Assembly: GCA_003427395.1 (NCBI GenBank) | Contig: BFEA01000004.1 | Location: 3,628,334 to 3,692,333, forward strand | From: Chara braunii | Lineage: Eukaryota; Plantae; Charophyceae | DNA length: 64,000 nt | Direction: 5' to 3' | In this document: in pieces, positions 10,693-59,815 of the stretch | How the letters are laid out: every line of letters begins with the position of its first letter | Numbering within the stretch: position 1 is the stretch's first letter | Notes under the pieces: generated by a model | Database searches by the model: none | Told to the model about the DNA's origin: nothing | Seen by the model: the letters and a program-made list of their open reading frames with translations, nothing else | Translations under genes and position numbers: made by a program

Positions 10693-10782
10693 AAGGTCGT
10701 GTCTCCCCAGATACAGTGAGTGTTTGTGCCACTGAAATCCTCATGTTTTTCGCTAGGGTAAAAAAAAAAACAAAATTGTAGC

Positions 10783-17527: not shown

Positions 17528-17595
17528 CTAGGCTACCAGCCGGGCCGCCCGGGTCCCCGATGGCCAGCCCGTGCAAGGACCAGGGAAGGTCCCAA

Positions 17596-17633
<38 letters not shown>

Positions 17634-17811
17634 AAAAAAACTATGTTATGCAGAAAAATAAACTGAACAATTTTTGCCTCAGGGTCACATCGGAATTCTT
17701 CACCAAATTTAGAATGAAAAATAAAATTTAAAAATATTTATTTTATTTTTATTATTTTAATTTATTTTGGCCCGGTCGGGCAAGTGACCCCGGGCCACTC
17801 TGGTAGCCTAG
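17528..17811. mobile_element. hAT-like MITE
   Basis: 12-bp TIR CTAGGCTACCAG/CTGGTAGCCTAG. 8-bp TSD CATTTTGC at 17520-17527 and 17812-17819. Confidence 0.88.
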
Positions 17812-19231: not shown

Positions 19232-19834
19232 GTGCGCCTGTCGGATATACCTAACTGCGATGGCACACTTCGTGTGTCGCATTGGTTGCAGGCAACCATG
19301 AGCGCACTGACAATGACAAATACTAGTCAGAAGTCGTGGTGCTCTCTGCTCGCAACCAAATTGCGAGACTGCGCTTTCACCTCGTGGAAGAGGTATTATA
19401 CTGATCGTACTCACATAGGTGAGGCTCCCACTTTCACAGACTTCATCGCTTTCCTTCATGACCGCTATGGCGCTCAGAACGACGTGACCGACGCCTTAGA
19501 TAGGGTCAGCCAAATGCAGTGGCCTGAGTCCTCTGCACCGACAGACCTAGAGCGTCACATTCGGGTGTTTCAAAACGCCCGCCTTATTTCTGATGAGTCA
19601 CACCTATCAGAGGTTCTTCTGACCAACAGGTTTCTCGTCGGTCTGCCCCCTGATTATCGCATAGAGCTTTGGAGACAGACCTTCATGTCCACAGACCAGG
19701 CTGGGCGAGGTTGCTCGACAATATCAGAGGATGTGGAGTCGTTTCTCCGGCGCCCCGTCCTCTCCGCGCCACCTCCCAATCACGCGGCAGCACTTGAGGC
19801 CTTTAGTCTTTCTCCGGCCGCTTTCACCACTTAG
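19232..19834 (+). pseudogene. Retrotransposon gag capsid-like fragment
   Basis: LATKLRDCAFTSW..TFTDFIAFLHDRY..LLTNRFLVGLPPDYRIEL, a typical Retrotrans_gag pattern. Confidence 0.75.
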
Positions 19835-22960: not shown

Positions 22961-23089
22961 CCTTGCTGCCATCTCGATCACCACCGTTGATCACTCGGTG
23001 ATCGATGCATATCGCACTCAATAACACCACTGTCCGGATTATTGCTACATCCACGCGATACTTCGGAGTGGCAAAATCGTTTCTTTATA

Positions 23090-23439
23090 AACTTTCATTT
23101 TGTCAAAATTGACATTTTTTATTTTTTGAATGAAATTGAAACTAAGTTTTTTGGCCGAAAACTCGTCGAAATTTGCTGCTCCTGAGGGTTCGACGTTCTT
23201 AAAACGTTGGACCCCCTGGATGTATGTAGACCGTGACTTAGCTTCATACCAGATACATCTAGTGGAAATCGCCTAATTCTATCTGATCTGAATCGAGGTC
23301 CAAATACATCCAGGGGGTCTAACGTTTTAAGAACGTCGGACCCTCAGTAGCAACAACTTTTGACGAGTTTTCGGCCAAAAAATTCGGTTTCAAGTTCATT
23401 CAAAAAATAAAAAATATCAATTTTGACGAAATTGCAGTT
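23090..23439. mobile_element. Palindromic MITE of the AAC...GTT family, inserted in the Gypsy pol
   Basis: Arms CATTTTGTCAAAATTGA...TTTTGGCCGAAAACTCGTC and their reverse complement GACGAGTTTTCGGCCAAAA...TCAATTTTGACGAAATTG. Same family as the 30.9, 56.3 and 59.6 kb copies. Confidence 0.88.
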
Positions 23440-23763
23440 CTCACTCTATTGGTGAGAACGGTCTAGTGTACTAACATGGTAGATCTGATCAACTCGAGCT
23501 ATGTATATACGTTCCCTATACTGGACAGCTCCGCGTCCCGGTCGTAATAGAGCTCCATGACCAGACAGTTGTCGGTCATATGCGCTTCAACAAGACGTTG
23601 ACCCTTGTTTGCCGCCTATACGTCTGACCGAAGTCCAAGAACTTCGTCGAAACCCATGTCTAGGCCGTGCGAACCACCTTGAATTCCGTATTGGGTTACT
23701 TCAACCTCTACTTATACCTGATGGTCGTTGGCAGTCCATCTGAATAATTTTTGTTGGTTTCCC

Positions 23764-25456
23764 AGAGAGAAGGTAAACAACAATTATATTTTTCATGATA
23801 CTTAATTTTACCATTCACCACTTCGGGACCGTTCGGAATTTCAAGAATGTCAGAACACTGCGAAGATAGATTGTTTTCAGAGTGTTCAAACCGTTTACCA
23901 CTTCAGGATTGTTCGCGATTTTCAGCCTGCCGAAACAGATGGTTTTTAGGGTGTTTAGATCCTTCATCACTTCATGACCGTTCAAGATTCTTAGACTGCC
24001 TAAATAGTTACTAAGATAGATTGTTTTCAGGGTGTTTAGACCCTTCACCATTTCATGATTGTTTGCGATTTTCAGTCTACCTAAACAGGTTGTTTTCAGC
24101 ATGTTTAGACCCTTCACCACTTCAGGACCGTTTGTTATTTTCAGACTATCTAAACAGTTGTCAAGATAGATTTTTTTCAGACCATTCAGACCCTTCACCA
24201 CTGCAGGATTGTTCGGGATTTTCAGATTGCCTAAAAATGTTGTTTTCAGGGTGTTCAGACCCTCACCACTTCAGGACCATTTATGATTTTCATATTGTCT
24301 AAACAGTTGCCAATATAGGTTGTTCTCTGGGTGTTTAGATCCTTCATCACTTCAAGATGGTTTGGGATCTGCAGATTGTCAAAACAAGTTGCTTTTAGGG
24401 TGTTAAGACTCTTCACCACTTCAAGATTCTTTGGGATTTTCGGGTTGCCTAAGCATTTGTCAACATAGGTTGTTTTCAGGGTGTTTCAGACCCTTCACTA
24501 CTTCAAGATCGTTCACGATTTTCAAGTTGCCTAAACAGATTGTTTTGAGAGTGTCCAGACCCTTCACCACTTCATGATTCTTTGAGATATTCAGATCGCC
24601 TAAATAGTTGTCAAGATAGGCAGTTTGAAAATCCCGAACCATTTTGAAGTTGTGAAGAGTCTGAACACTCCAAAAGCAACCTGTTTAGAAAGTCTGAAAA
24701 TTTTGAACCATCCTAAAGTGGTGAAGGGTCTGACCACCTTGAAAGCAATATGTTTAGGCAGTCTGAAAATCCCGAACCATCCTGAAGTGGTGAAATGTTT
24801 GAACAACCTAGAATTTTCAGGGTGTTCAGACTCTTCACCACTTCAGGACGGTTTGGGGTTTTTAGGGTGTTCAGACCCTTCACCACTTTAGCATGGTTCG
24901 AGATTTTCAAACTTCCTAAACAGGTTACTTTCAGGGTGTTCAGACCGCTCATCACTTCAAGATCGTTCGGGATTTTCGGGTTGCCTAAACAATTGCCAAG
25001 ATAGATTGTTCTCAGGGTGTTTCATACCCTTCACTACTTCGGGATCGTTCAGGAATTTCATGTTACCCAAACATATTGTTTACCGGGTGTCCATACCCTT
25101 CACCACTTCAGGATTGTTCGGGATTTTCAGATTGCCTAAACAGTTGCCGAGATAAGGAGTCTGAAAATCTTGAACCATCCTGAAATGGTGAGCGGTCTGA
25201 ACACCCCGAAAGCAACTTATTTAGGCAGTCTAAAAATCCCGAACCATCCTGGAGTGGTGAAGGGTCTGGACACCCTAAAAGAAACCTGTTTAGACAGTCT
25301 GAAAATCCCGAATTCATGGCAAATAGAATGCGGGTGCATACTGCTCACCATGAAGAACATACCTCTCACTCCGAATTCGGGGCAAATAAACGACCGTAAA
25401 TTTCTCACTTCAGAATTTTCATTACCGAATTTTCAGCTATCCGTCAACTGCTTGTG
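23764..25456. mobile_element. Mobile satellite cassette, long copy: 66/78-bp units with internal inversions, inserted in the Gypsy integrase
   Basis: About 20 copies of GACCCTTCACCACTTCAGGA..GTTC..GATTTTCAG..TGCCTAAACAG. Inverted blocks at ~24620-24810 and ~25158-25315. The integrase frame FVGFP|HPPTERGH rejoins across the insertion. Confidence 0.9.
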
Positions 25457-26550
25457 GTCCCTCATCCTCCCACTGAGCGCGGACATAATGCTATCTTAGT
25501 CGTCGTCGATCACTTCGTGAAGCGTGCACATTTTGTCTCATGCCGCTATCGCATTAGCGCTTGTGAGGTCGTCGACATCGTCTTTGACCGAGTCATGAGA
25601 GATCATGGTTTACCTCAGAACATCATCTCCCACCACGACGCGCGTTTTACCATCACATTCCGGCGACGCCTACATGAGGTGTACGGATCTCAGCTCCGCT
25701 TATCGTCGTCTTACCACCCTCAGACGGATGATCAGACCGAGGTCACCAATAAAACTCTCTGTAATATCCTCCGAAGGTTTATTAGGGATGATCAGCAGTG
25801 GCCTTACACTTAGCCCATGTGGAGATAACGTATAATTATGTTGTTACGTCGGCCACGGGGATGTCGTCATTCTATTACGACCTCGGCTACCACCCTCGTG
25901 TTCCCGCGAATTTCATACGACCGTCGCGGTTGCGCCCAAACACTCGTTGTCCTGCGCTTGGTGTTTGGATCGCCCACATGGGGATGATTATGAGACACAC
26001 ACACAAGAGTCTAGCCAACTCCTAGACTCACATGGCCGCACGAGCGAACCGATCACGAATGAATCATCCATTCCAAGTCGGTGACGTTGTGCGCACGCCA
26101 CTTGCAGCTCGAAGCGGATACACTTCGCAAGTTCAGGTGTCGCTTCTTCGGTCCATACTCACCCTTCAGGTCGTAGGTTCTTATACTGTCGTTAGTCCGG
26201 TCAGCTTCCGTGTGAAGCTACCTGATTACCTTTGACAGACTCGTGTACACAATGTATACCACGTCTCCTTGTTGCGTCCTTATCATAGACCGTTTGAGCG
26301 CTTCGCAGGATGTCCTTATGAGCGCCCTCTACCGATCATGGTGGACAGTCACAAGGAGTTCATCGTTTCGAACATCGTATCTCGCGGAGTTACCAACGAT
26401 ACCCCTCCACGCATCGAGTACCTTGTGCGTTGGAAGGGTTATCATGATGAGGAGGCTACTTGGGAGCCCTTCGAGCATTTGGAGTACGCCCGGATGTTGG
26501 TGCATGCATATGATCGTGCTCGTCGTGCTGAGACATCTGCTCGTACTTAA
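25454..26550 (+). pseudogene. Gypsy integrase core and chromodomain fragments
   Basis: ILVVVDHFVKRAHF, HGLPQNIIS..DARF, SSSYHPQTDDQTEVTN; chromodomain EFIVSNIVSR..IEYLVRWKGYHDEEATWEPFEHL. Confidence 0.93.
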
Positions 26551-28384
26551 CCAATTGACCTTCTTCCTTCTCCTTCGACTGAGCAAAATTGTCATAGACG
26601 AGCCCGCTCCCTCTGAGGCTGTTCTTCAGCAGCATACAGATGCCTCCGCACGTCCACAACGCACTTATCGACGACCTCGGCGTCTCGACGACTGACAGTC
26701 TCATCACTTACCTATCTCCTACCACCGACTCACACATGTACTTCATTATCAGCTTCTTTAGAATGTCATCGTTTTGTGGCTCTGCTTTAACATCTACTGG
26801 ACTCCTACTTCATCGACGTCATCGACCACCTTGCCGACTTCAACCATTTTCTCGACTTCAGCTACTTCATCGGCTTCAACTACTTTGAATGTGATTACTC
26901 CATGCCACCACCCTGCGTTGTGCATTCCCTTGTATGTGTCGCAAAATTGTTCTCACTTAGCTGGTTCTCCCTGAGTTGGGCTCTCCCTTTGTATCGCATA
27001 GGCATTGAGACCGTAGCGTTATCTTGGCTTCCCTGCTCCTAGATCTAGCTTACTCCCTAGTCGGTGAGTTGTGTGCATGTTTCCCTCACCCACTACCCTC
27101 ATCACCCTAATATCGGTCATTGCATGCATTTAGTTAGGCATATCTTCACCCTATCTCGGACTCCCCTTTCATGGTCGACCCATCCCATCTTCGTGTGTGA
27201 CTGCCCTTAGGAGTTTTTATTCTTAGGTTGCATTCACCCCCTCTGAGACCATCCTACTCTTAGTGGTTCAGCGACACTGTGACGACACTATCTTGTGACA
27301 TATTGCTATTTTTTCCTTTCAACACTAAGGTAGTTGCCTGTAGGACTTTAGAGTTGTACCCTGCTACATTTCATTTCCTGCTGTTAACTAGGATGTGTAT
27401 ATCAGACATTTGATTTTGCTATAACATTATGTATCTTAGGCTGCATTGCATGGATTCCGCATCCTAGATTTCTCAACTTTATTGTTTGCAACTTTGCATA
27501 GTTTCGTTGCTTTTGCGAAAGTGTATTTATGACTCTTGCAATCCACTACAGGTCCGAGGATCGTGTAGCGTACCTCTAACTGCCCTGGCTCTATCCGGTT
27601 ATTTTGCATATTCGGTCTGTGTGACCATGTCATGGTCTAACCCCACATGACATGTGCTCATCCAGACCAGTCCAATCCTACCTGGTACCACTGTCGGTGT
27701 CAGCATGAATACCTTTACAAAGGTATTCGAGCATCTTTTTGCACCTCACACAAGTGGCACCTGTGGCGGTACTTAAAGCAGCCAGTCACATAAGTGTTGT
27801 GAAGCCCACGACCAATTCTTTGTAGCAGGAATGGAGGGCACACACGAGATGGAACAAGAGAGTGTGTGGACGTGTGAGCTTAAGGCGCGGGTGGTTCGTG
27901 TACCATACGCTAGTAGTCGTGATTATAAGGTTTTTATTTTAATTGAAAACTTAGATTAAAAAATATATATATAAGTTGGTCGTTGTACACGAACGACCAT
28001 AGGCAGGGCCGACCATCTGTGCGGAAAAGGTGCCGACTTTGGCGGTCAGCAGACCGACTGGTAGGCCAAGATGTGGCCTTGGGGTACTTTGGTGAGGCAA
28101 CGAAGTGAGCAAAACCTGTTTATATGAGTTTCCGTTAATGTTAATACCACTCTTGGGCATACCACTATTGGTTACACTGTTGGATTTACGTACGGCAAGT
28201 TCAAGGATCAAGGCCAGCAAGAAGCGATGACAAGGTGGTGGAGTGGAATGCAGGACATTAAGGGGTTGAGGGTCTGACGGGGCTGTCCCCTTCAGTTTCG
28301 ATGCCAACCACGACAACAGGTCTTACTAGTGGGACCAAAAGGGGTGTTAGCGGTCCCCTCTCTTCCCCGACCTCCACTTATCTT

Positions 28385-30894: not shown

Positions 30895-31238
30895 AACATT
30901 CATTTCGTCAAAACGAACATATTATATTTTTTGAACAAAATTAAAATTGAGTTCTTGGGCCGAAATCTAGTCCAAATTTTTGGCTCCTTAGATGTATTTG
31001 GAGCCCCTAGATGTATTTGGTCATAGCTTGAGACTACATACATCTAGGGGGTTCCGAGAACGTCGGACCCCCTAAATGTATTTGGTCATAGCTTGAGACT
31101 ACATCCATCTAGGGGGTCCGACGTTCTAGGAACGCCGGACCCCCAAGAGCCAAAACTTTGGACCAGATTTCGGCAAAAAAACTCAATTTTAATTTCGTTC
31201 AAGAAATATAATATGTTCATTTTGATGAAATGGTTGTT
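30895..31238. mobile_element. Palindromic MITE of the AAC...GTT family with 4-bp TSD AAAG
   Basis: AAAG-AACATTCATTTCGTCAAAACG ... CATTTTGATGAAATGGTTGTT-AAAG. It has no counterpart in LTR-like copy 2. Confidence 0.9.
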
Positions 31239-31912
31239 AAAGCGGTTCTTCGAAGCTGCGTAGTAGCAACTTGGTCAGGGGGAGTGACATCGAAGCTTAA
31301 GGGAGCGGTCAGGCATCTGCGAGAGGGTCATTGTTGTCAAGAGAAAAACCGTTAGGGTGTTGTTATACAACTTTTGGTTGCGGATTGACTGACTTGCTAC
31401 GCATTTTGACCACTATTGTGGGGCTCTCAGACATGCTGAGATTTCAATGCCCTCTCTTTGCAAGTTGAGTTTGTTTCATTTTTGTATCTCAAGAGTCTGA
31501 AACTCCTTACGTCTTTCTTATTATAAGTCTAGTCTGTGGTTACGAGAGGAAGGTGGCAGGCGGGATTGGAAATCCGTAGGACCGCATCAAGGGCATGTGG
31601 GAGGTCCGCCCACCGATTGCAGGAACTTTGTCGGAACTCAAGGGGAGTTATGGAGACAGGGAATTATCGTGTAATTTTCTTTGCCTTGTGTGAACCACTA
31701 TACCCCTATTTTATTACATCTCTCTAATCTGATTGAAATGTATGCGTGCAACCTTATCTTTTATTGATTTTTTATGGAACTTAATCAGATTGAGTAAAAG
31801 AAAAGATTGTGTGAATCCTGCTTTGCATTGTTGCCTGAAGTCAGACAAACGGGAATGAATTAGGGGAAGGTGGAAGAAATGTGGTCCTGATTGAGAATGT
31901 GGGTCACAAAAA

Positions 31913-32640
31913 GGGCAGGCATGTTTCTAAGTTAAATGAACTGATCGTGATGAATTTTTTTTTACTTGTTTTTTTATGGGTCAGACACTGTTTCTAAGTT
32001 GAATGGTCTTATTGTTATGGTTGTGCTTTGGGGTGTGCATAGTTTGGTTTTGAGGCCAAACATTGTTTCTGAGTTGAATGACTTGACCTACTTGCTTTTT
32101 TTTTTAAGGTTTCTAAACGAACCCCGACATGTTTCTAAGTTGAATAACAAAGAAATCTCTTCTTTTCTTGAAGTTCTAAGAAGTAGGGTTGAGTATTGTT
32201 TCTAAGTTGAATTACTCAAACTCTTCTTGTATGTTCTTTTGAGCGGATTCAGGCTTAGACTAAGTATTGTTTCAAATTTGAATGACTTAGTCTTACAAGT
32301 CGGTCGGATAGGGTTTTAAACTTGAATCAAGGTGAATAATCTTACTAAAGCTTATCATTAAAGGAAGAGAGTATGAAATTAAAAATATAACAAAGATACT
32401 TAGGTAGGTTGAACATTGTTTCTAAGTTGAATGACTCAACGTTATGCCTTGTTGAACATATGAGGATAAAAAAAATACTTCAAATTTGAGCTATTAAATG
32501 GTCAGGGTTGGCACAACAGGGTTTCTAAGTTGAATGATTTGGTCATATCCAAATTAAAAAAAAAGTTTTATTGTGCCATGTGTTTTGTTTATAATTATGG
32601 CGAGACTTAACATTGTTTCTAAGTTGAATGATGTAGCCTA
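31913..32640 (-). repeat. Array of ~9 conserved-loop hairpins with unique spacers (copy 1)
   Basis: The core TGTTTCTAAGTTGAATG (up to 2 mismatches) starts at 31922, 31989, 32064, 32130, 32197, 32268, 32417, 32520 and 32614. Several cores are flanked by unit-specific inverted repeats. Confidence 0.9.
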
Positions 32641-32919
32641 TAAGACGTGAAGTAAATTATTGTATTAGGGTTTATCTAACTAAGAGATAATGAACTACTT
32701 ATATATTAAAAATAACCTGGAATTTTGGTGAGAGTACTTACTCATTGTGGTATGGCTTTGCATATGAATTGAGTATAAGCTCTGCCTAATTTTAGTCATT
32801 GATTTGGTAGGTAGTCACTTTAAAGCTCGCCATGTGCTGGAGCGATAGAAGATGACTTTGATTTCACATATCTTCTGTGTTAAGAATTGGACTTGTACGA
32901 TTTGAGATACCAACTCTCT

Positions 32920-33530
32920 AAAGTAGTTGCTGCCGAAAATTATACAAGATCTAAGAAGTTATGTAATTTTGCAGGCTTTGCATAATAAAATTGTCCAACT
33001 TATTTTTTAATTAGTATAAATTTGACACTGTGTCTTCTCTAAATGAGATGTTGTTCAAATTTTAACTAATTCAAGGAGTTTGGCATATCCTTCTATACAA
33101 AGTTATAGGTTTTTGTCTACTTCACATTTCTGAGTCAGTAGGGATATGAGAAGCTACCTGCTCTAAAGGAGATGTTATCCAAATTTTTACTAATTGAGGG
33201 CGTTAGATAAAATTTGTCTTTGAAAAAGTAAGAAAATTTTTATGACCCGAATCTAGATTAGTATAAATTTTTTTATAGTACTTTCCTATGGGAGGTGATG
33301 CCCAAATGTTTGCTAATCTGAGGAGTCAGATAAAATTATGACATTTTTGAGTTATAAGTTTTCTGGGATTCTCATGTTTTAAATCTTATATAAATTCTGC
33401 GAAAGCACTTTTCTTACGGGAAGTGCTTCCGAAATTTCATGAAATTTAAGGAAGTTAAAATATTTTAGGACTTTGAAAGTTTGACGATCTACCCTTGCTA
33501 AAGGAGATGCTGACAAAATTCTTGATATTT
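32920..33530 (-). repeat. Diverged ~124-bp tandem array in the LTR-like module (copy 1)
   Basis: GATG....CAAAT..T..CTAAT...GG.GTT.GATAAAATT-like motifs near 32931, 33047, 33171, 33297 and 33423. Confidence 0.75.
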
Positions 33531-35300
33531 TTAAGACAAGTGTAAGAGATAAGGTAAGAAGGTAAGATTGTTCCATAGTCCCTTAAGCATAGCTTGGGTA
33601 CTGACCTGTGTTGTATTGCATGACATTTTGTTTCAGATTGTTTCAAGGCTTGACTAGCTTCAGGCTGATCCTAGGAGGATCATCTTCTGTTATCTTTTAT
33701 TAACAAGTCGGTTTTCGGCTTAACTCTAATTCATTCTCGCTAATTAACCTAAGGCCTTACCTCCTGTGGGTTGATTTTTTTTTTTTATCGGGAATTTTAT
33801 TAAATGACCATTTAAAAGAGATTGGGTGCTCTTCTTCTGGAAGGTTGGACAAAGGTGGGGCCTTGTTTGACTAAGGCAAGAGGTGAGTACAAAAAATGGT
33901 TGAATTTTTATGCGATCATGTGCATATTTTAAAGGGAGTCACATTGTGATTGTGAGAGTGATCGCGCCGTGTCCAATGAACCCGTTATATTTATGTTTCT
34001 GAGTACTCGCGAGGTCTACTTTCACCATGCACGAGGATTGAGCAGACTTCTACCGAGAGAAAAGAAAGATTCACTTTTATTTTTGCTTTCTGGATTTTTA
34101 TAGTTGGACGTTGAGGTCCGTGGCGACTTTCAAAGTCAAACCCCTTGACCTGTATCCAGACCTCTGACGATGGAGCCCCGTTCCCAGAGTTAGAGACGTT
34201 TGACCACCACTAAGGGTCGAAGCCGCCTACCCCTCCTCTCCGCAGTATGCAGAAGAGGGTAGGTCTCGCAATCACATATGCAATTGTCTAGCGTTAAGGA
34301 ATTAATCCCTCAGGACGCGGGTCATCCGACACTTGAGCGCCGAAAACGACCCTAAAAATCTTTGAAAATCGTGTGGTCAGGGGTACCACATAGTTCACCA
34401 TGATTGTGACAGCTTGCGTACTCATGCATGGCTGGTGGACATGGAAAAGTTTACGTTGCCGTGATATTTATTCAGAGTTTTGTGAGCGATGCCCGCCTAA
34501 TTCCTTCGTCGAAAGTTATGAGTTGAATGTTAACAATGGACTAGGCGTGATTTACGTATGAAGCTTGATTTTGTCTTGTGAAGTGTGTCGCGTGGTTAGA
34601 TTGGTCATCCTAGTCGACTGACGTAGGATCGCATTCGAGAAATCAGCATCTCGGGCGACGATTCGTCCACGGGTCTGATTCGGGCGTTAACCGGGCGTAC
34701 CCCCTATGCTACAACGAACGAGAAATGTCGTCGGCTCAACCACCTCTGCGATCGCATATAAAAAGTTTTCGTACATGGTTTGATAGCTTGGCGGGGATAC
34801 ACCCACCTAAGGGATGGTGACAAGTCTTATGGGTGGAGGTAAGTTGTACCTCGTGGGACCCTATCCTGTCGTAGGGGTTCGCGAGAGGTATGGCTGACGC
34901 ACTTGGCCGGAGCGGCAATGCTCTGCGACGAACTTATGCAAATCCTGCGTGACACAGTCGGGAGGCCCTTGCGGGACCAATGCGCTTGACATCGGTACCA
35001 GGCCAATCCAGTCCAGTCCATCCAGTCCAGTCAGTCAGCTAGGGGTATACCCCAACTGCAGTCTATTTCAGTATCCTTCTTCACTTGCACAGTTTGGAGT
35101 ACGTGCGTGTTGAGTCTGTGTTGGAGTTGCGCTGGTCCTTCCAGCTCCATCCCCATCTCCCCCATCCTCATCCCTTCGTCTTGATCTTGATGGACCGCCA
35201 TCCCGGCGGGTCTGTCACAGTCTGCCTTTGATTCGAACTTATAAGTCATTCGAAGTGTCACACTGTGTTCGGCAGCTTCACCTTGATAAGTTTACCCATC

Positions 35301-42585: not shown

Positions 42586-44299
42586 ACGGTGTGTTGAAGT
42601 GGGGTTATCTCTTCGCATCTTCTGTATATTTTTTATTATTGGTTTTCGACCATCTTCGCTTGCGGCACTCTCAAATTTTCTTTTCGTTGTTTGATGTAGT
42701 AATTATCTTTCTCTCCCCCATCTCTTCCTATTAAATGGAGAACTTATGACAATTTCTAAAATTGATTGATCGCTCGAACGATTTGCATGGAGGGTTATCG
42801 ATCGCAGAGCCAAGGGATTATGAGGAGTATGGGATAAGCTTCCTGCTGATGTATGGAAAGGCGTATGTAATCCCGCCGTTTTTTTTTTCCGACCATGTTT
42901 CTGTGTATGCAACATCGATCGACTGAATGATTTTGCATTAAGCCTGTAGAAGTTATCTCCTCGAATAAACCCAGATCAGGATAGATGCATGCACAACTGG
43001 TAGGTTACAGATTGTATACATGCCTAGGTATGAGTTGGATCTTCCTCATGCATGATCCAAGCACGATTGATATCTGATGCGCGCGAATGTTACTCACTCT
43101 CTCTTTCCTTCTGCCCATCGAACATTTGTTTGAGTTGCACTGAGTATACGGGCATCGTTCCTTCGTAAGAGCAATAAGAGTAGATTAACGGTAGGCGTAA
43201 TACTTATGTTGGAACACATCATGTGCACGCACGTATACGGATGACACCCGAACGGCAGTTAATGCCAGTTATCACGCATATGGGTGTCTGCATGATTCGT
43301 TCCTGACCCTATCACGCCTGGTACACCCGAATGAATGAGTTAAGTACTTTTTGCAAAATATGGACATTGGTGTTTTGTTGTGGATCACTAACCGTGCCTG
43401 CTTAAGGGACCTTGAGTACCGAGAATACTGAGAAAGTGAACAACTTTTCCGTCGATCGAACTTAAGGCTCCCGGCCTAACCTCGCCAGACTGAAAACGAT
43501 CGATTATGTGCCTGGGATTTTGAGAGGGTCATCGGACGGAATTCCCGAATCCCGGATCACCCCGACACCCGTAGCCACCAGTACTACAACACATCGGGAT
43601 TCGTCGCGATCGAAACCAATTCCCCTCCATTCTATCTCCTTCTCCTTTATCACAATCTAGCGGCCGTCCCTTGGGAGTCAATAGCCCCCTCCTGGCCCCG
43701 GAGGTACGGCTCTGAGTATCGAGAGTATTATACTTATTGAGCCGGGGGATTTGTCCGGCGAACACGGCTTGAAGCTGAGTGTCGAGAACATGGCCTCCGG
43801 TTGAGGCCATCCATGTCAGATTCCGAGATCTACAAAACCCGCCAACGACAACTGTTTACACAGAGAGACACCCAATGTGTTCCCTCCGTACATCGAGTAC
43901 GAACCCGCCCTGGACGATGGGGCAGGCAAAACTAGCCGCTCGACTCTGAAGTGTGAAACTGAAGATCTGGTCCTACGCTAGACCACTTGCATCCCTGTCC
44001 TTGAAATTTGGCACTGGAGATCTCAGTTCTGGCTTGGGACTCCACCCCTACTTTCCTAAAATCCTTGGCACACCCCTACTACGCACTTCCAGGCCCCCTC
44101 CCACTTTGAAAACAAAAAGTCCCGCTGGGCGTGAGGTTAGTATGAGAGCCGACATGTATCAAGATCAAGGACTGACAAGTGATCCGGCTCCATATCTCGA
44201 CCGATCTGGTGAGCCCCAGGCGAGGACGGTCTAGACAAAGAAACACGTTAAAGCGCGAATCCGTAGTCACCCGAAACCGACCCACCCACTGCCCCGCCT

Positions 44300-46142
44300 G
44301 ATTTGTATCTTTTCAACCTTGCACATCATCTAGCCGGAGCATGGCTTGCCACGCTTCGATCACAACAACATGACAATGATGAAGCCAGTATAAACATCCC
44401 CGCCTGTCTAGGAGGAGATGCGCACCATTGGTTCAGTACCTACGTCTTGATCGATCTCCCGACCTTCGAAAGGGAACAGACTTTATTTATGATTAAGGAC
44501 CGAGTACAAAAACCTCTCTAGTTCATCGTTGAATACCAAAGCCGGTTCTACAGACTGTTCATAAAGTCCGAACGAGAAGAGAATATAGAGACCTGTTTAT
44601 CAACGGGCTTAGGAGCCGCGCGATGCGCGCCAAGCTGCGAAAACAATTCTCCCCCATTGATCACACCACACAACAAATCATGGACATTGCAGAAGAAATA
44701 AAACGGAAGTTCGCCACTAGCCTCCTTGAAGAGGAAGACCACGCTAAAGACGAAGACTCTACTGAACTAGCCTGGGCGCGAGCGGAATTAGATGCACTCC
44801 AGGACAAGTTCAAAAACATGGGGGTTGTATCAGGCCCTGTCACCGACCTAGAGCGGGTAGTGACTAAGAGACCTCTTTTCGATCTAACCACAAGACCATC
44901 GGTGGTGAAAGTTGCTGCACCCCCCACGAGCACAGTACGAAAGGCATACGATTCCAGCGCAGTGTTAGAACTAACAAGAACTTTGAAGAACATTAATTTG
45001 AAAGATAATACAATGTCGGTATCGAAACGTTGATGAGATCGATGCGTCCCGGTCGGAGGCCAGCCTGTACAAGCGGCAAGGGGACCCACCATATCACCCG
45101 TCGCCAGGACAAACGAATGCCATACGTGTCATCAACCCGGACATATAGGAGGGGATTACCCCCACATAGCTCCACAGACTTGGGTAGGAGCCACCCCCGT
45201 GGCAGCTGCCCCTGTAGCGAATGGACCAGGGAGAGTCGGAACGATGGTGGAAGAAACGGAGGGGGTGATGGTCGGGGCAACGGTTATGGAGGAAGCAGCA
45301 AAACTCATCCCCCTCGATCAATATCTCACGTTGGACTATCCCGGGTTAGGCATGATAGGAGCAGTTCAACCGGCTGATGATGAGCGAGAAGTTTCGGAAT
45401 GGAAACCCTCGCCCCAAGAAATGAAATCCGGAGAATCAGATTTTTCACTAGACAGATCAACGCACTTAATATAGTTCGAGCCCTAGATTACTGTATACCC
45501 TTACCGATCGGGCACCTTCTGTCCATATACGAACAAGCTAACAACAAAATGCTACAACACTGCAAGGCTAATCGAAAATAATTCGCCCTCGCAAAGCTTG
45601 CCGCCATCAAGGGAAAGGCGTCCGACAAAAGACAGAAACTTGATAAAGCAAGGACCTCAGAGTCCGTATGCGTAGATTGGTCCAGAAAGACGATCACTTT
45701 TTGTGCATCAAGCCCATCCCGTAGATATCAGCCGAATGTGATATAGAGGTATGAGGAATACCGTACAACGCCATCCTTGACTCAGGGCAGCCGTATTGGC
45801 AATATCACTCAGGTTAGTTGAGCAAGTTGGAAGAAAAAAATATTTAATCCTCATCCCAGAGGGAGACCACCTCGTCTCCGCAGACGAAGGGAAAATTAGG
45901 GTTGCTGGTCTGAGCTTGGTCGAATGTCAAACGTCGCTTTTCGAATAGGAAAAGTGCATGCTCTCGGTGAGGCGATTGTACTAAATGTGACGTCATACAA
46001 TCTGCTCATTGGTCTGCCTTCCCTCAACTCGCTACAAGCAAATATGGATTTCGAACGACGAATGGTGGTCCTCAAGAATACAAGAGGAAAGTCGCATATC
46101 GTCCCTGTCGAGCACATCGGTCTCGTACGGGGACCCTCCTGA
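44300..46142 (+). pseudogene. Degenerate LTR-retrotransposon gag plus aspartic protease
   Basis: Gag-like LGGDAHHWF. AILDSG at ~45770. FRIGKVHALGEAIVLNVTSYNLLIGLPSLNSLQANMDFERR matches a gag-associated protease C-half. Truncated where the LTR-like module begins. Confidence 0.75.
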
Positions 46143-47799
46143 CCACGTCACGCAGGATTTGTGGCTGGACTTTATCATTTTATCGTGGTGCAATGGAGCT
46201 TCCGTCGCCTCTCCGGCCGAGTGCGCCAACCATACCTCTCGCGAACCCCTACGATGGGATAGGACCATGCGAGGTACAACTTACCTCCACCTGCGGGAGT
46301 TGTCACCATCCCTTAGGTGGGCATGTTTCCCCTCGAGCCACCGAACCACATGCGAAAGTTAATGAGTTGCAAACGCAGAGGTGCCCCAACCGAGGGCGTT
46401 TCTCGTACGTTATAGCATAGGGGGTAGCGTGGTCCAACGCCTCTATCGGACCCTTAGGCGAACCGACGCACTGGGGGCTGAAGTCCCAAGCGTGACTCGA
46501 CGTCGGTCAACTAGGACGCATCCAACTTACCACACGTTACATCACGCTAAAAACATAAAATCAAATTACACACACAAATAAAACACTCCTAGTCCCCTTA
46601 GTGTCGAACCCATAACCTTCTGATACGAAAATCGATTAGGCGTCGAACGTGAGTCTTAAGATAAAACCGTGCGGACGCAAGACTTTCTCATATCGACTAG
46701 CCATGCATGCATATGCAAGCAGTCGCAACGATGACGTACTAAGTAGTACCCATAATAATGTGACCCTCGATGGTCTCGAGGGTCGCGTTCGACACTCAAG
46801 TGTCGGCTGACACGCGCCTTGAGGGGTTAATCTTTCAACGTTAGACAACCGTCAAGGCGGTTGAGAACCACACCCTTTTCTGCACCCTGCGGAGAGTGTG
46901 TGGTACATAGGTTCTTGCCTGTTGTGGAAGTCGGGTTTTATTTCCTGGAGCCGAGTTCCATCATCCAGAGTCTGGAGAGAAGTCAAGGGGTTTGATTTTG
47001 ACGTCTGCCACAAACTCCAACGTCCAACTATAATAATTGTAAGAAGCAAGGGGGTAAAAGAAAAATCTTCATTTTCTCTCAACACATAATTCGTTTAACC
47101 CTTACGCACGATCACAGTAGGCCGCGCGGACACTTGATACAGATATATAAATACAAGACGATCACTTCTCATAATCACAGTGAGTCTCCCTTCAACCATA
47201 CATATGAAATCGCAGACAATCAAATCCAGAGTCTGAACCACAAACATACCTGCAATCACACCAAAGATTCAACCAAAAATCCATACACTACACGGGGTCA
47301 ACTTCAACCACTCTCTATGTTCATACCCCTCGCTTTAGCCATACAAACCCCATCTTTGTCTAACCTTCCATAATAAAATTCCCAGTACCTTTTTTAAATG
47401 GACATTCGATAAAGTCCGGGTGAAAACCCAACGAAACAATTCAAACCACAAGAGCTAAAACCTTTAGGTTGAGTAGCAAGAGTGAATTAAAGTTGAGTCG
47501 TAAACCGACGAATTGACAACCGACCTGTTATCAATGATAACAGAAGATAATCCTCGTGAGATCCAGTTGAACCTAGTCCAATCCTTAATCGATTTGATCA
47601 AAAAATTACATGTAACAGAAGACAAGTCAATCCCCAAGATTAATACTTATAAGTGCATGGAGAACAAACCTCCATATCACACTTTAGTGAAATCCAATCC
47701 ATAACTAAATATGAATTTACCTCTTGGCAAGTGCCCAAGCAAAGGTCAACCTCTGGCGGCGCTACCTCTATGCATGGTTGATCGCCAAAATTTTCCCTA

Positions 47800-48400
47800 T
47801 CAAAATATATCTAACTCCTTTCAACTAAGAAAATTTCGGCAGCGCTTCAAATTTCCGTAGGAAAAGTGTCTTTTCATAATTTATACTCGTTCGCATATGA
47901 AAACTAAAATGATATTCAACTCTAGAAAGTCAAATTTTGTTTAACTCTCTGAATTAGGAAAAATTCGGCAACATCTCCTTTAGAGAAATAGACTTCCAAA
48001 ATTTATACTAAATCAGATATGAACTCAAAGAAAGATTTGACTTCTTGCCAAGACAAAATTTAACTAACTCCTTAGATTTGTAGAAATTTCGGCAGCGCTT
48101 TTCGTAGAGAAAATAGTTTTTCAAAATTTATATAAAGTTAAATACAGATTTGAAATGATTCTGACATCACAAAGTCAAATTTTGTCTAACTCACCGAATT
48201 AGTAAACATTCGGGCAGTACTTCTCTTAGAAAAGATGGTTTTCCATATTTCTACTAAGCCAGACATAAACTTTAGATAAATGTTGAACTTTGAAAAACTA
48301 AAATTTAACTAACTCATTGGTTTTGGTTTTGTAGAAATTTCGACGGCGGTTCTCGTAGGAAAAGTAACTTTCTAAAGTTATAGAAAATCAAGTCAAGTAA
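47800..48400 (+). repeat. Diverged ~123-bp tandem array, 5 units (copy 2)
   Basis: TAACTC...AAATT(T)CGGCA...TAG.(G/A)AAA units near 47811, 47941, 48064, 48186 and 48309. Confidence 0.8.
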
Positions 48401-48669
48401 AAGATCTCAGAAAATGCGAGAATTGACCTAAATAAGAAACTGAGAAAATGCAGAAATTGAACTAACTCATATGACTCTGGCACGTGGCAAGCAACTAAAG
48501 CGACTACCTATCAAACTGAAACTCAAACTAAGTAAAACTCTCATTCGGCCACATGCAAGTCCATACCACAACTGTAAATACTCTCACCAGCCCCTAGGTT
48601 AAACCTTATCAACAGTAATTCATAGTCTTTCAATAATTTATCATTTATACCCAACTTACATAAGACATA

Positions 48670-49392
48670 AAGCAAAACCATTAAACCTAGGAACAAAGTC
48701 TAGCTCAACCATTGAATATACACAAACACATGACACTACTACTTGTCTCTTCTTTGAGCATATGACTAAGCGAAACAAGCATAGTCGCCCTAAACTATCT
48801 AAGTAACCAAGTTATAATACTTTTTTGCTCTTAGTCTTTTAAGGCAGCATAAGACTGAACAATTTGACTTAGAAACGAAGTTCAACCTGCTCCTTTTTAC
48901 CACCAATTTATATTTTTAATTAATATATTTTTCTTTTTCATGATAAGTTATAGTCAGACCATTCAACTTAGAAACAAAGTCTGACTAGCTTGTTCGTAGA
49001 TAAAATAATAATAAAGTATAAATAAGTTTATCATTTTGTTCCAACATGTGTGTGACTCCAGATCAGACCATTCAACTTAGAAACGAAGTTTGATCCTTTG
49101 TCTGATTCCCTTATAATAAAGCAAAAAGAAGTTTGAGTCATCCAACTAAGAAACAAAGCTCAAACTCCCCTCTTTATAAACAATAAAGAAACATCGTAAA
49201 CCCTAAAATAAACCAAGACGAAGAAACCATTCAACTTAGAAACAAAGCTTGGTTCCTGAAAAGACAATCGTAGACAGTCCACGCAAATCAGAGCAACGAG
49301 ACCATCTAACTTAGGAACAACGTATCGTCCTCGAGACAATTAAAAAAACTAAACATAGCACTGGGTCATTCAACTTAGAAACTAAGCCCAAC
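48670..49392 (+). repeat. Array of ~8 conserved-loop hairpins with unique spacers (copy 2)
   Basis: CATTCAACTTAGAAAC-like cores at ~48679, 48861, 48960, 49069, 49139, 49228, 49303 and 49367, most with unit-specific stems. Confidence 0.9.
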
Positions 49393-50828
49393 CTTTGGTT
49401 GACCCGGTCAGTCGCAAGCAAAACCACCTGTCTCTCGCCTTCCCCAAATTCACAACCCCTTTTTCAATCTGAATTCAGACAAGCAACAAAAATGAAATTG
49501 AAAATGGGCATTCATTCCTTTACTTAGCTCAGATTTATGTCCAGAAAATCAAACATAAACTCAATATGGGATGCATGAAGTATACTCAGTCAAACCATAG
49601 AAAGATGTATAGGTAAGGGTTTTATCTGGGTTTATAGAAGGGGATGATGATTACCACTCAGTTCCCTGCCCCCAGAACATCGCCTAGGTCCAAGCAGAGC
49701 TCCCACAATCTGTGAGGCAATCCTCCCACAGAGGCCTTGGCACGGATTACGAGTTGCAATCTCGCCCACCGCCTTCCTTTAAGGAGTCAGAACCAATAGA
49801 CTAGACTTAGAATAAGAAGGGCAGAAGGAGGAAAATTTTGTCACTCAGACCTTAGAATGGTGCACTCATACTCGTGTGAGAGCCTTCAAATATTCCATGC
49901 GTCTTAGGGTCCCGCAATGATGGCCAAATAAGCAGTAATCCCGCTAAACTAAAGTCAGAACGCTAAATGCTGACCTCCTGGTGGTCCTCGCAATCGCAAC
50001 AAACACCCCTTTCAAAGAAACTCGGCCACTCTACAGTCACTGACTTCCACTCCGGATAAAACAACAGTTGCGTAGTCCAGAAAGCCTGCATTCAAACACC
50101 ACCCTTGTATTCTACTTAACGTAGAGGTGTTAGACGTAGCAACTTCAATAGACTCAGCAACCCCACCAGTTGTTCACGGTAGCGAAGTACCAAAATACAG
50201 TAAATCACAATGTCACGATTGCTTTGCAGCAGACCATAAACAACACAGTGGTCTACTGCGCATACACAGACTGTGGGCGGAAACCAATAACAACCCCTTC
50301 CTGATCCTCGTTGTTGTGTGAACACGCAACAACATCACCAGTCGTCGACTGCAGTAGCCCAACTGAAATCCATCTTAGTTGCAGCTCCTAGACCGGACAG
50401 TTGCAGCAACATCTGTAGCGGAATAATTCCATAACTACAGCTTCCTCTCGTGAAACCCAAAGAGTTATTGGTTCTTCAGTCTGACCTGGTGAGTTTCAGA
50501 TCGGCCCTGCACCAAACAGGCAATGCCCTTCTGCCTCACTCTGCTGGCTCCACTTCTCCTTTTTCAAACTCGCTCCCCCAATCTATCGTATCTCGATGTT
50601 ACTGAATCTGACCGCAACCCCGACCCGATGCGGGTAACTCAAAGTAGCCAGGATCCGCCCTTTATCTAATAAGAAGAACCCTACCAGAAGCCGGAGTATA
50701 CTGCACCTATGTGACACCCTCGGCCTAGACTGCGGGCAATTCGGCCGCCTCGACCAAAAAAGTCGGCCGGCCTATTTTTTTAGTATATTTTTATACCCCT
50801 AAAAATACGTAATATATATATATATATA

Positions 50829-51596
50829 CAGGGTTACCTGACCGAACGCTCGGGGCCCCCCGGGCTGGCCCCCGAACGTTCGAGCGTTCGGGGTCCTGTT
50901 CGGGGGCCGAACACCTGCAGGTTCGGCCCCCGCCAAAAACATTTTTGGGGCCAAAATGTTTGTTTTTTTTTTTTAAGTTTTTTTTATGAGTTCTCTATGA
51001 TGTAACCTACACGCCTATAAATTTTGAATCTATTTTGCTAAGCCAAAAAAACACTAAAAATCGTCAAAGATGGGGGCGTCAAAACGTGCTCGCCCACTCA
51101 CTATTTTGTTTTTTTTTTCAGTTTTAACTTTTTGTTTTCCCTTTATTTCGGGGCCTACAAAAAAATATTATTTTTTTAAAACAATTTAACGAGTTATTGA
51201 TTATGTAAACTACATATCTGTAAATTTTCAGGGCATTTTTCAATGCCAAAACATAATTAAAAATCGGCAAAGATGGCGGTGTCGAAAAGGTGCTGGCACA
51301 CTCACTCATTTTAATTCTCTTTTTATTTTTTCTTATTTTTATCATAGTGTTTATTTTCTGTATTTGATTTTTAATTCAAATTTGGTAACGAATTTGGATG
51401 TAGTGCCCAGGAAAATGTTGTTTAGTTTATTGTTCTCCATAACATATTTTGTTTTCGGAATTTTTTGAAAACGTTGTTTTGTTTTTTGTTTTTTTTTGTC
51501 TGCGTTCGGCCCGAACGGCCAAACGCCTTCCGAAGGGGTCCCATACGTTCGGGCGTTCGGGTTCGGGCGTTCGGCCTGTCCCGAATGCCGGCAACC

Positions 51597-55305: not shown

Positions 55306-56280
55306 CTACTTCCCAGTTCACACAACCTACAAAAATTTGAGCGTAGTAGCCAACCATGTCTTCGTCATCATACCCACCATCCTGAGAACACGGAACGTCG
55401 TCTTCCATGTAGAAAGGAATATCTCCATACTACAACTCCCCCACCAACTCCATCGTGTTTCCGAAGAGCTGCGCTGCCATGTTTATCGTCGTCTCATTCT
55501 CTGCTGGCGGTACCCCTGTCCACGCGTCATGGACAACCACATCACCAACCGCAGATGCCGCGTGGCCAATCAAGGAGCCACGCACGTATGTTGGACGCGT
55601 GCAAAGGCCCAACATCCGAGGAGCATTCCCCCTCAGGTCCTAGTCGAGCCTGGGGAACCGGACCTCGTCAGTCCGCCAGGCGACGGGGCGCTAGCGCTAG
55701 TGCAAACTCCTTTACCCTAATTCAAATTCGGACCCGGTTCATTTCTAACCCTGGGCCCCTCACTCAATAGGGTTCAGCCTTTACTTGAGACAATAAAAAG
55801 CTCCCCACGAATAGACCGGAGCTCTGTTTGAAAAAAACAAGAGAAAAAGAAAGAAAGAACAAAAGGGATCGTAACCTGAGTATCTGTTGAGGCCTGGATT
55901 CATGTGCGCATCGCAAGTTAGCAGGGCGCCGAGTAGACGCACTTGGCGGTAGCCGCTTGTGCTCTACTGGGTCTTCTTCGGCCAATCGGTGATGGAATCT
56001 CGTCCCAAAGATCACACTCCGTGTTGGTTTCATTTGTTTTTCTATGGTTAATGGGGAGTTGTGCAACATGTATTTGCCATTTGGTGGTTGCTTGCGGACA
56101 TAACATGGGTAATCTTTGGCAAAACGAAGTCTTAGAGTGAAGTTTTAAGACCGTGATAATGAAACACTTTGATGTGGGGCTTACATAACTGCAAACTCGC
56201 AACCAGTCTGATGCACATAGGTTAGGGCCGCGATGGAGCACCGTTCAAATGTAATGTTATAGTGTTGCTCAAGCGCCTTA

Positions 56281-56590
56281 AACAGCAATTTCGTGAAAAC
56301 GGACATTTTATATTTTTTGAATGAAATTGAAACCGACTGCTTGCTTTTGCCCAAACAATATCATTTTTTTGGCTCATGAGAGTCTGGCGTTCTGAAAATG
56401 CCGTACCCCCTGGATGTACCTAAACTTCCTCCACGTGCAGATAATGGGTCAATTGTTTCACTAGGGCGAAAAAGAGTCTTATGTACTGATGGTTTTGATG
56501 AAGATTTTGTGAAACTTGATACATGCAGGGGATATAATATTTCCAGAATGTCGGATCCTCAGGAGAAAAAAAATGAGAGTTTTTGTGGCA
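56281..56590. mobile_element. Truncated MITE of the AAC...GTT family
   Basis: Left end AACAGCAATTTCGTGAAAACGGACAT. The right arm is incomplete. Confidence 0.7.
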
Positions 56591-56603: not shown

Positions 56604-58560
56604 CTATTTTCTATACTTTTCACAGACTCTGTAGTTCCTTATATTGGTTTTATCTCCCTTTATGTGTAAAAGGTTGAGAATCCCCTGCCCAACTAATTCT
56701 CCCATTTGCCCTGACACATAAATTGAATCAACAAATTTTATTAGGTCTGATGAGAAGGCTGACCACATGACTTCCCAAAATTCTTTCGGATATCCATCAA
56801 TGTAAGGGGTTTTATCCTCCTCCATCTGTAATAATGTTGTCCATAGTTCCTCCAAGGATAATGGCCTCTCTAACTGGTCTCTTTGTTCATGAGTCAATGT
56901 TTGATTTAATTGCAAGAAACCTCTTCATGGCTACCTCATCTTCTTGAATATGTTCCATATTTTTCGTTGATGTGAATTTTTTTTTGTAAACATCATAAGC
57001 AATTTTAAGGCTTCCCGATGAGGATAATGAGATAGAGAGAACAAATGCTCTAGTAGGGTCATGAAACCCTTCAATAGTGGTGTGACTAGATCTAGTACGC
57101 AGTAAAGCAAAAAAAAATAACGTCAATTTGACCTTCAGTCATATATTGTGATAATTTGACTCTGCCAACGATGTTGGGTAAAAGATAGAAGGTGATGTTT
57201 CAGTTCTTGAATATCGACTGGGTGATAATTATTTTGTAATTGATCAAGTTCAAAATTAGAAGTTGTTCTTGAATGTTTATTTTTTGAAGGTAACGGTACT
57301 TTGCATGTACTTCAAAAAATTCATTACATTTTTTGACAAAAAATGTCAGACCATTGTTGAACCATGCTATGTAGGTGTCTACGTATTTTCCCCTAAGAAA
57401 GGTTGTTCACTTGTATTTGCAATAGTGACTCCCAACATTAATCTAGATCCATAATAGATTTAATCCTAAGGTCACGGGATCTGGATCGAGGTTTGATATT
57501 AGCTGCTATCTTTTCCCAAAGTCCATGGTAAGGGATGAATCATAAAATGTATATAACTCTATTGCCTTTTAGAAAAAAGTCGGATCAGGGGAATAATTTT
57601 TACAAATTAAACACCTCTTTACTTTCGCAAAGACAATTCAAACAATACATAAAGGACGTTTTTTTTTTCCTTTTGTAGTGTCCCAATAATCCCAAACGTC
57701 CTTTATGTATTGTTTGAATTGTCTTTGCAAAAGTAAGGAGGTGTTTAATTTGTAAAAATTATTCCCCTGATCCGACTTTTTTCTAAAAGGCAATAGAGTT
57801 ATATACATTTTATGATTCATCCCTGACCATGGACTTTGGGAAAAGATAGCAGCTCATATCAAACCTCGATCCAGATCCCGTGACCTTAGGATTAAATCTA
57901 TTATGGATCTAGATTAATGCTGGGAGCCACTATTGCAAATACAAGTGAACAACCTTTCTTAGGGGAAAATACGTCGGTATGTATCAAATAATTGTTCATC
58001 TTCACATAATCTATTGATGATGTTTTCATCCTCTTCTATATATGTTGGACAAGGAGTGAGAACTTTCCATCGATCCATCCATATATTAGGGGTTGCATTG
58101 AAGTCCCCTGCCATGATGAATGGTTTTCCATCTGGAATTTGAACCTTGATTTTATGAAAAAATTTAACCCTTTCTTGGACCTCATTGGGTTCATATACAT
58201 TAATGACACATACTATTTCCAGTTCCAGCATAGCCAAAGCAAAGATTTAAGGACCATGTTCTTTATCGGTTATCCAATGAACAATTTATACCCTAGAATC
58301 TGGAGGCACCCAAATGGCCACTCCTCCTGAGCTACTTTGTGGCACCGGACATGAAATTTTTAAAAAAGGTTATGCCCGATTGTGTGGTCTATTATGGGTT
58401 GAGGAGTCCATGAGATGGGTTTCCTGTATGCAGATCAAATCAGGCCATATATGACCCCTCACTCCCATGAGTTGCTTTATTACAACTTTCCTCTTTTCCC
58501 CTTTTGTTATGGCGAGTTCATTTACATCCATCATTATTACATCTAAATTGGTCACTCTGG
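56604..58560 (-). mobile_element. Decayed L1/Tx1-like LINE ORF2 5' part (APE endonuclease and pre-RT region)
   Basis: DLICIQETH, INVYEPN, IMAGDFNAT, NHKM, FYKLNTSLL, LERPLSLEELW..KTPYIDGYPKEFW..KGDKTNIRNYR. Confidence 0.92.
57381..57974. repeat. Fold-back inverted duplication inside the LINE (281-bp arms, 32-bp loop)
   Basis: 57381-57661 is the reverse complement of 57694-57974, with only a few substitutions. Confidence 0.93.
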
Positions 58561-59593
58561 TAGCATGGACCCAAATGGATTCTTCCCATAATGCGCTTGC
58601 AGTGCCTGCATTAATAGATTACGAAATAAATTTCCTTCCTTTCCCTATGTCTAGTTAACTTCTATAAGCGCATTGAATTAAATTTCCCCTTATCCAAGTT
58701 AGTAGAGGACTGAAGAACCCCCCTTCAGAGGATTGAGCACAAAAAGAACGTTACATTTGCCACTGACCAGACTGAGTTTGCTTTGAGTTTGATGTACAAT
58801 AAATCCAACAGGGCGTTATGTGAGTACCATTTGAGGTCAGCCTCCGTTTGATCCTCAAACCTAACGAAGGCATCCTGCTTGGCTATTTGTGTCCGATCAC
58901 CTATTTTTGTGAGAGTTGCCTGAGGTCCCGGATCATAATGTTTGGAGAGGAAGTCGTGAAAATCTCGTTTGAAATTCTGGTCATTAGAATTCTGATATTC
59001 CACGTATGTGGACCATCCTCTCAAGATCACCCCTCCATATTAATCTTGCCCCATTGGAGACAACCCGATTTCCCACTTCCCATTTTTCTTTTTAATTGGA
59101 ATAACCAAATTACCGCCTTGGTGCGTGCGACCTGATGGCTAGACCTCTTTCCAGAACATTCGCAATTTTTGTTTTTTACCTGTTTCTTGTGAAACTGACG
59201 TGAGGAAAGAGACTGACCCTTCCTGAGTGTGTTGTCCTTTGTGTACAAACCCCCGTGAGTGATTGACAGATTGTGCCTATTGTTGTGTCAGTCGCTGTAA
59301 TCGCAGAGATTGATCGATATGTTGTTGTTCCATATAAAGTTTTTGATTCTGTTATGAAAACAGGAACTAACGTTGTGGCACCTCATGCATCGGTTCGTGC
59401 TGTTGCGACAACAACTGTTGTTGGGAAATCTGTTCTGGTACTTGAGATCGTTGTTGAGACTAACAACTGTTGTTGTGACGCCTGTATAACAACCGGATTC
59501 TCATCATTAGTAATTCATTTTTTTTCTTCTCCCTTTCCTTCCTTCACCACCCCTTCTTCATACTATTCATTCTTTGTTTGTATTTCATTGTCT

Positions 59594-59815
59594 AACAGCT
59601 ATTTCGTCAAAACGGACATATTTTATTTTTTGAACGAAATCAAAATTGACTTTTTTTGTCAAAATCCGGTTGGAATTTTTTGCTACTTGGGGTCCGGCGT
59701 TTTGGGAACGCCGGAACCCCAGGGAGCAAAAAATTCCGACCGGATTTTGGCAAAAAAAGTCAGTTTTGATTTCGTTCAAAAAATATAATATGTCCGTTTT
59801 GACGAAATGACTGTT
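59594..59815. mobile_element. Palindromic MITE of the AAC...GTT family with 4-bp TSD GTCT
   Basis: GTCT-AACAGCTATTTCGTCAAAACGGACATAT ... ATATGTCCGTTTTGACGAAATGACTGTT-GTCT. Confidence 0.9.

Follow-up and report, generated by a model that had tools for sequence, protein, structure and literature searches.

A hairpin array kept as structure rather than sequence in a dispersed, likely retroelement-derived repeat of Chara braunii

The stretch of Chara braunii DNA analysed here (64,000 nt, referred to as the window) is rich in decayed mobile DNA, including Ty3/gypsy remnants at about 5500-10700 (minus strand) and 19400-26700 (plus strand, with a chromodomain), and the closest proteins to one reverse transcriptase frame come from Chara braunii at about 70-74% identity (top 22 matches). 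The genome paper of this alga, published in Cell in 2018, reportedly describes a large repeat family that is specific to Chara and carries gag and RT domains. Two copies of a dispersed repeat, inverted relative to each other, lie in the window and each holds an array of small hairpins. The features concerned are the following:

31400-34954, no strand assigned: repeat body of copy 1
31911-32639, plus strand: hairpin array of copy 1, nine units and a half-deleted unit, inverted relative to copy 2
44267-46142, plus strand: neighbouring decayed gag-protease-like frames (RVP_2, E 0.013, below the Pfam cut-off)
46146-49930, no strand assigned: repeat body of copy 2, common to copy 1 and, from 48740 on, to a third copy (L006); begins (T/C)GTCAC
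47028-47080, plus strand: CTATAA box, then a pyrimidine patch about 30 nt on, kept in both window copies
47800-48450, no strand assigned: diverged tandem repeats (units of about 125 bp) that both window copies contain
48670-49394, likely minus strand, not settled: hairpin array of copy 2, eight units, recognised from motif matches and arm pairing
48670-48706, 48852-48888, 48951-48987, 49060-49096: units 1 to 4 of copy 2
49130-49166, 49219-49255, 49294-49330, 49358-49394: units 5 to 8 of copy 2
48763-48787, no strand assigned: remnant unit with its loop lost, whose counterpart is an intact unit in copy 1 (32536) and a remnant also in L006
49640-49835, minus strand: conserved block adjoining the array, with one-directional family RNA reads and a consensus fold

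The hairpin array is real. Eighteen matches to its motif were seen in the window against 0.88 expected by chance, eight of them in copy 2 on the plus strand (48679, 48861, 48960, 49069, 49139, 49228, 49303 and 49367), nine in copy 1 on the minus strand (32630-31938) and one at 47818, outside both arrays. All six stems quoted in a preliminary description of this DNA were found in the sequence as it gave them, and the unit number of 8-9, which it regarded as retained, proved correct, with eight units in copy 2 and nine in copy 1. In each unit of copy 2, a lower stem leads through a bulged junction to an upper stem of 3 bp, which is capped by a hexaloop. The arms around the 19-nt core form 96 Watson-Crick pairs out of 153 (17 units by 9 positions, both window copies), compared with a mean of 61.7 +/- 6.4 and a maximum of 89 in 100,000 trials with arms swapped between units. 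Tandem Repeats Finder found no array at 48670-49394 or 31911-32639, and the units are repeats of structure, not of sequence. Their order agrees across the three copies, except where remnants occur and where copy 1 has an additional unit; in copy 1, the half-deleted unit near 32301-32352 corresponds to unit 3 of copy 2. It was also observed that the 125-bp tandem units hold, at 47905-47950, a stretch like a decayed array hairpin (weak model match, E 0.46; compare the motif at 47818), and the two arrays may share an origin.

The third copy, L006 (2,280 nt), was obtained from a metagenome scan in which a one-loop pattern gave five loci and a two-loop pattern gave no matches, while a scan of viral contigs gave five single motif matches. 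Nine of these ten loci lack stems and were set aside as chance matches, only L006 being homologous. It contains 10 hairpin units and, over the shared part, its likeness is 65% with copy 2 and 52% with copy 1. One of its units has a core of the window type and the others keep only the hexaloop A(A/T)CTTA, with different closing stems, the upper stems observed being TTC/GAA, TCCA/TGGA, CTG/CAG, CAA/TTG, CTA/TAG and CCCCA/TGGGG. A CCCA/TGGG form of the stem was independently met as loose ends in DNA runs X1 and X2 (from one sample) and, with one change, in three RNA reads. Exact hexaloops closed by three pairs account for 9/10 in L006, 5/5 in copy 2 and 7/7 in copy 1, compared with 3/48 in the rest of the window.

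Comparison of copy 2 with L006 over seven matching units shows identity at 38 of 42 positions in the hexaloop and at 8 of 42 in the upper stem, a low value that may be explained in part by an inserted closing pair; four spacers are identical at 106 of 179 positions, so that the upper stems have changed faster than the spacers. In the window units, 45 of the 51 upper-stem positions, all inside the 19-nt core, are Watson-Crick pairs. The unit that is conserved is not a loop of 19 nt; it is the hexaloop A(A/T)CTTA, carried on a stem of two tiers, and the stem of 3-5 bp under the hexaloop is replaced between copies while staying paired. The earlier statement that the loop had been kept is therefore right for the hexaloop and wrong for the 19-nt "loop", which is itself folded into a junction, a short upper stem and the hexaloop.

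Stem types are shared by neighbouring L006 units, and this, together with the rapid change of the upper stems, would fit an array devoid of function, in which a hairpin was duplicated in tandem and its stems were repaired by template switching, thereby mimicking compensatory change; according to one study, stems can arise and be maintained through a single template-switching event (bioRxiv 10.1101/2021.04.15.439925). We regard this explanation as highly improbable, as it accounts neither for the near-identity of the hexaloop while adjacent bases turn over nor for 18 one-strand wobbles at fixed columns of L006, and as template switching should, by inference, yield perfect stems with no strand bias.

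Between the two window copies, seven matching units are identical at 105 of 133 positions in the 19-nt core and at 71 of 126 in the stems (p 1e-4), and among 63 stem pairs seven have changed on both sides and nine on one side while still pairing, with 27 broken in at least one copy. The spacers, which had been described as aligning poorly, are in fact homologous, three of the five tested between the window copies scoring above shuffles (p 0.002, 0.002 and 0.026). The choice of gap costs affects the difference in identity between core and spacer (p 1e-6, 0.013 and 0.078, significant in two of three settings), which is also inflated by the selection of units by their core; loops and spacers were not equally diverged in this comparison.

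Among six L006 units, 13 of 72 cells are changed on both sides, a number reached by none of 500 shuffles. This supports the proposal that selection acts on a single-stranded fold, for which the two window copies give less strong support than L006 does. Copy 2 had also been called an internal replicate; the two window copies have a common ancestor in a large family and are not of independent origin. A covariance model made from the six L006 units recovered three of eight units in copy 2 and four of nine in copy 1 on the modelled strand, with E up to 5, and this was not counted as evidence because chance matches of equal score were intermixed.

The repeat bodies of the two window copies are 62% alike (46146-49928 against 34954-31405, inverted), with a left end of TGTCAC in copy 1 and CGTCAC in copy 2. 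Summed contig depth in DNA run X1, which is not a copy number, amounts to 2e4-1e5 over most of 46159-48543, 600-7,600 on the array, about 19,000 at 49657-49815 and 10-22 at 49975-50610. This indicates that the array sits in a very common repeat, the shared part of which stops near 49975; with three copies seen and high summed depth, the repeat is dispersed and of high copy number. Unit 3 alone has an X1 depth of about 10,700 and other copies carry successive near-identical hairpins 29-38 nt apart, which means that the stems are variants of a family theme and not free sequence.

An element end at 50716, proposed previously, finds no support, as no target-site duplication was found for 46146-50716 and likeness between the copies stops at about 49930; for copy 1 there was no convincing duplication either, both copies being old and maybe truncated. 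The tails of the three copies gave no alignment above shuffles, and a likeness of the L006 tail to 50540-50730 was rejected for lack of significance across the tail as a whole (score 93.5 compared with 83 +/- 9.5). After the single-copy stretch, summed depth rises again to about 1,500 at 50611-50760, a repeated end motif with a putative link to the array element.

An LTR retroelement origin of the repeat is likely, judging from the TGTCAC end, the copy number and the context. Comparison with 120 related proteins found no pol inside or after either window copy, and the frames of the window and L006 yielded neither a Gag nor a pol that could be linked to the repeat. Near 47345-47360 both window copies have, on the minus strand, a purine tract followed by TGT. 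The AG-rich segment at 49800-49835 was discarded as a polypurine tract of the plus strand, since the following TG is absent in other copies, and a coding role of the repeat was discarded as well, all frames being full of stops between copies. Matches to the best minus-strand frame of L006 were limited to a 53-aa gene call of near-identical sequence plus three unrelated repeat proteins, and no protein-coding frame is supported in L006.

The gag-protease-like frames at 44267-46142 stop just before 46146 and copy 1 has a different neighbour; these frames probably belong to a separate element and not to the repeat. They include a damaged zinc-knuckle-like motif (recognised by eye) and a retropepsin-like frame, with no reverse transcriptase after it. 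Searches with the upstream gag-like frame gave no sequence relative, only Atlas leads below 0.9.

The strand that carries the structure is likely the minus strand, which we judge about twice as probable as the plus strand, although the choice is not settled. Six of the ten L006 units have equal length and were aligned without gaps, and with one bulged base 68 of their 72 cells are paired on the minus strand compared with 52 on the plus strand, in a fixed register drawn from those same six units, which are six of ten in one contig. Two-sided change is seen in 7 of the 12 pairs; controls slid out of register give 22-53%, and none of 500 shuffles reaches the score. The pairing failures on the plus strand comprise 18 A.C and 2 G.U (p 4e-4 against 1:1), with no large substitution bias in the L006 flanks that would match the A.C excess, and at three junction columns C-G alternates with U.G or G.U on the minus strand, as is typical of an RNA helix formed by that strand. 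Folding of the L006 array is likewise better on the minus strand (z -7.1 versus -3.7), and mismatches flanked by Watson-Crick pairs favour it 7 to 2 in L006, compared with 3 to 3 in the window. A free symmetric alignment (69 A.C versus 14 G.U) was abandoned as a strand test, as shuffled arms give a similar share and the A.C excess does not exceed that of shuffled arms (p 0.10, 0.12 and 0.47).

The window copies are decayed, with equal rates of C>T and G>A, and this decay would blur the signal of either strand. The plus-strand wobble polarity put forward in the preliminary description is not sustained, given that the wobbles on that strand are balanced by mirror mismatches (18 G.U versus 14 A.C, p 0.60; 12 versus 14 with the first pair left out; 5 versus 9 in copy 2 only) and that the least decayed copy, L006, favours the minus strand. 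Nevertheless, a protein-docking array could be carried by a plus RNA, within the long leader of a transcript from a promoter near 47028; its loop would read A(A/U)CUUA, and the short stem beneath would rest on an open, A/C-rich internal loop. We consider this alternative unlikely but deserving of real weight. Consistent with it are the departures in the first three lower pairs on the plus strand (11 G.U versus 2 A.C) and in the window upper stems (4 versus 1), the stem variants of unit 3, of which only two exceed 6% and both are G.U on the plus strand, and the fold of the copy 2 array, which is weak and slightly better on the plus strand (z -1.8 versus -0.06); the copy 1 unit at 32080 folds only on the strand favoured earlier. 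The plus reading would, however, leave 20 of the 72 cells of the six L006 units unpaired, 18 of them as A.C, the whole-window wobble tally is 18 to 14, and the U.G of the first pair has another possible pairing.

Such conflicting strand signals, together with stems built largely of Watson-Crick pairs and able to fold on either strand, would also be expected if the hairpins act as single-stranded DNA (in the minus copy of reverse transcription, or as cruciforms) and are read by an enzyme of the element. Wobbles, which make up as much as a quarter of the pairs in the L006 units, are typical of RNA helices, though G.T pairs occur in DNA too, and family RNA is found beside the array, so we consider action as DNA very improbable.

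Three poly(A) RNA runs were aligned at 80% likeness (6, 12 and 13% of each read), giving 109, 3,932 and 177 matched reads, of which only 14 are 99% alike, which places their source in other members of the family. The array is flanked by reads running in both directions, and 11 fall on it, too few for direction. At 49657-49815, first mates lie on the plus strand only in X5 (10.4 versus 0) and X7 (15.3 versus 0), with X6 leaning likewise (27.5 versus 20.3); over 46159-48861, X6 leans the opposite way in 17 of 17 bins (464 versus 896), reaching into the array, above a two-strand background that follows DNA depth, and X5 and X7 have no such lean. As library orientation is uncalibrated, these directions convert to RNA strand only under an assumed library type: with the usual type, minus RNA would enter the array from the right and plus RNA from the left, and with the other type both would leave it.

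If the library type is the usual one, the X6 excess fits a plus RNA running into the array, as would be required for docking on the plus strand, but its absence from X5 and X7 speaks against this. The TATA-like box at 47144, which had been suggested as the promoter, finds no support, since copy 1 lacks an exact match to TATATAAA and the plus-type signal of X6 begins well upstream of 47144. The CTATAA at 47028, kept with its pyrimidine patch in both window copies, is a better promoter candidate and also agrees with a plus RNA.

For the conserved block at 49640-49835, the three-copy consensus fold is better on the minus strand (-43.7 versus -24.7 kcal/mol), although G/U-rich strands fold better by composition alone. 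Copy 2 (49631-49665) and L006 (1075-1110) share a promoter-like stretch on the plus strand, TTTATAGA followed about 28 nt on by TCAGTT, which is overlapped by a donor-like GTAAT on the minus strand at 49654, kept in all three copies. Either of these signals could explain where the one-directional reads stop.

The one-directional reads of X5 and X7 and the GTAAT, as a possible splice donor, also allow that the array is a minus RNA signal for a host factor, that is, a set of sites for processing, export or stability in the intron or 3' tail of a transcript starting right of 49830; antisense frames are described beside the tandem arrays of Retand elements in the accessible text of PMC11963269. 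We find this quite improbable, as there was no spliced read among the 15 joints listed of 790, the drop in read depth at 49655 is near a drop in DNA depth, no Rfam family matched, and the frames of L006 gave no support for a coding sequence.

Our tentative explanation, in which we have somewhat less than even confidence, is that the array serves as a multi-site docking platform on the RNA of a likely retrotransposon, probably the minus strand, where the protein that docks would probably be the element's own, of Gag type. Each unit would present the loop UAAG(U/A)U on a stem of 3-5 bp, below which there would be a single bulged pyrimidine or a 1x1 mismatch and then a longer G.U-rich helix, and the protein would read the loop and the shape of the helix, not the letters of the stem. 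Repetition of the units would make for avid binding, which would suit a polymerising partner such as Gag, and a Gag-type protein could use the array in RNA selection and packaging; such a partner is guessed by analogy with the packaging regions of retroviruses and Ty1. Units would be gained, lost and partly homogenised, as the shared stem types of neighbouring L006 units suggest. Since old copies decay, the constraint must act during replication of the element. More broadly, and rather doubtfully, a very large charophyte retroelement family might mark its RNA with a ten-fold array of hexaloop hairpins, the loop being a family-wide docking site and the upper stem a subfamily code that is rewritten wholesale, faster than neutral spacers change; this would represent an undescribed general class of multivalent signals for packaging or RNP assembly in retrotransposons.

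The iron-responsive element, hepatitis B epsilon and the PP7 and MS2 phage operators are bulged stem-loops with a hexaloop and one protein reader, occurring naturally in one to five copies. The array units resemble them in having a lower stem, a bulge, a short upper stem and a fixed small loop, and differ in the letters of the loop and in their two interchangeable junction forms. Rfam gave no match in the window at gathering score and one chance-level match in L006 (E 4.7).

As conserved RNA secondary structure in a likely retroelement, the array is comparable to retroviral and Ty1 Psi, a structured non-coding RNA region preferred by Gag, which in Ty1 is not precisely defined (PMC8396678 and PMC5035971, in their available parts; for Ty1 definition, PMC8396678). 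In contrast with Psi, which these parts of the two sources place in a single region near the 5' end, the array consists of 8-10 hairpins with the same loop over 0.7 kb.

Plant retroelements of the Retand/Tat/Ogre Ty3-gypsy type likewise carry repeat units in a long non-coding section, as family-specific tandem arrays between pol and the 3' LTR, of no known function and with antisense frames nearby (PMC11963269, available part). Those of Retand are head-to-tail sequence repeats in that position, whereas the present array is made of structure repeats and has no pol beside it. The accessible text of PMC11963269 contains no mention of hairpin, stem-loop or secondary structure and places Retand only in flowering plants. 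The antisense protein of Retand, TRP28 (PF04195), gave no Pfam match in 96 frames of the window or seven frames of the 2,280-nt L006. A literature search covering mostly non-subscription papers found no description of such a hairpin array.

RNA selection by plant and algal retrotransposons is largely unmapped, and the array offers an exact motif, natural two-sided variants and a family big enough for strong covariation statistics. It also illustrates that such arrays can be structure repeats, invisible to tandem-repeat finders.

Several other repeats were observed in the window. A short MITE-like element with long inverted ends is present at 30895-31239, 23090-23439, 56277-56418 and 59593-59815, having inserted into the tail of copy 1 and into the chromodomain gypsy remnant, with two further copies. 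The pol region of that remnant is broken by an array of 69/81-bp units with inverted segments (23810-25312), to which a short array at 14161-14552 is related. Nested inverted repeats of 91-93% complementarity occupy 10783-11485, with related sequence at 17595-17736 and 51352-51509, and a near-perfect inverted repeat at 57381-57974, whose 281-nt arms are 98% complementary and separated by a 32-nt spacer, could yield a long hairpin RNA.
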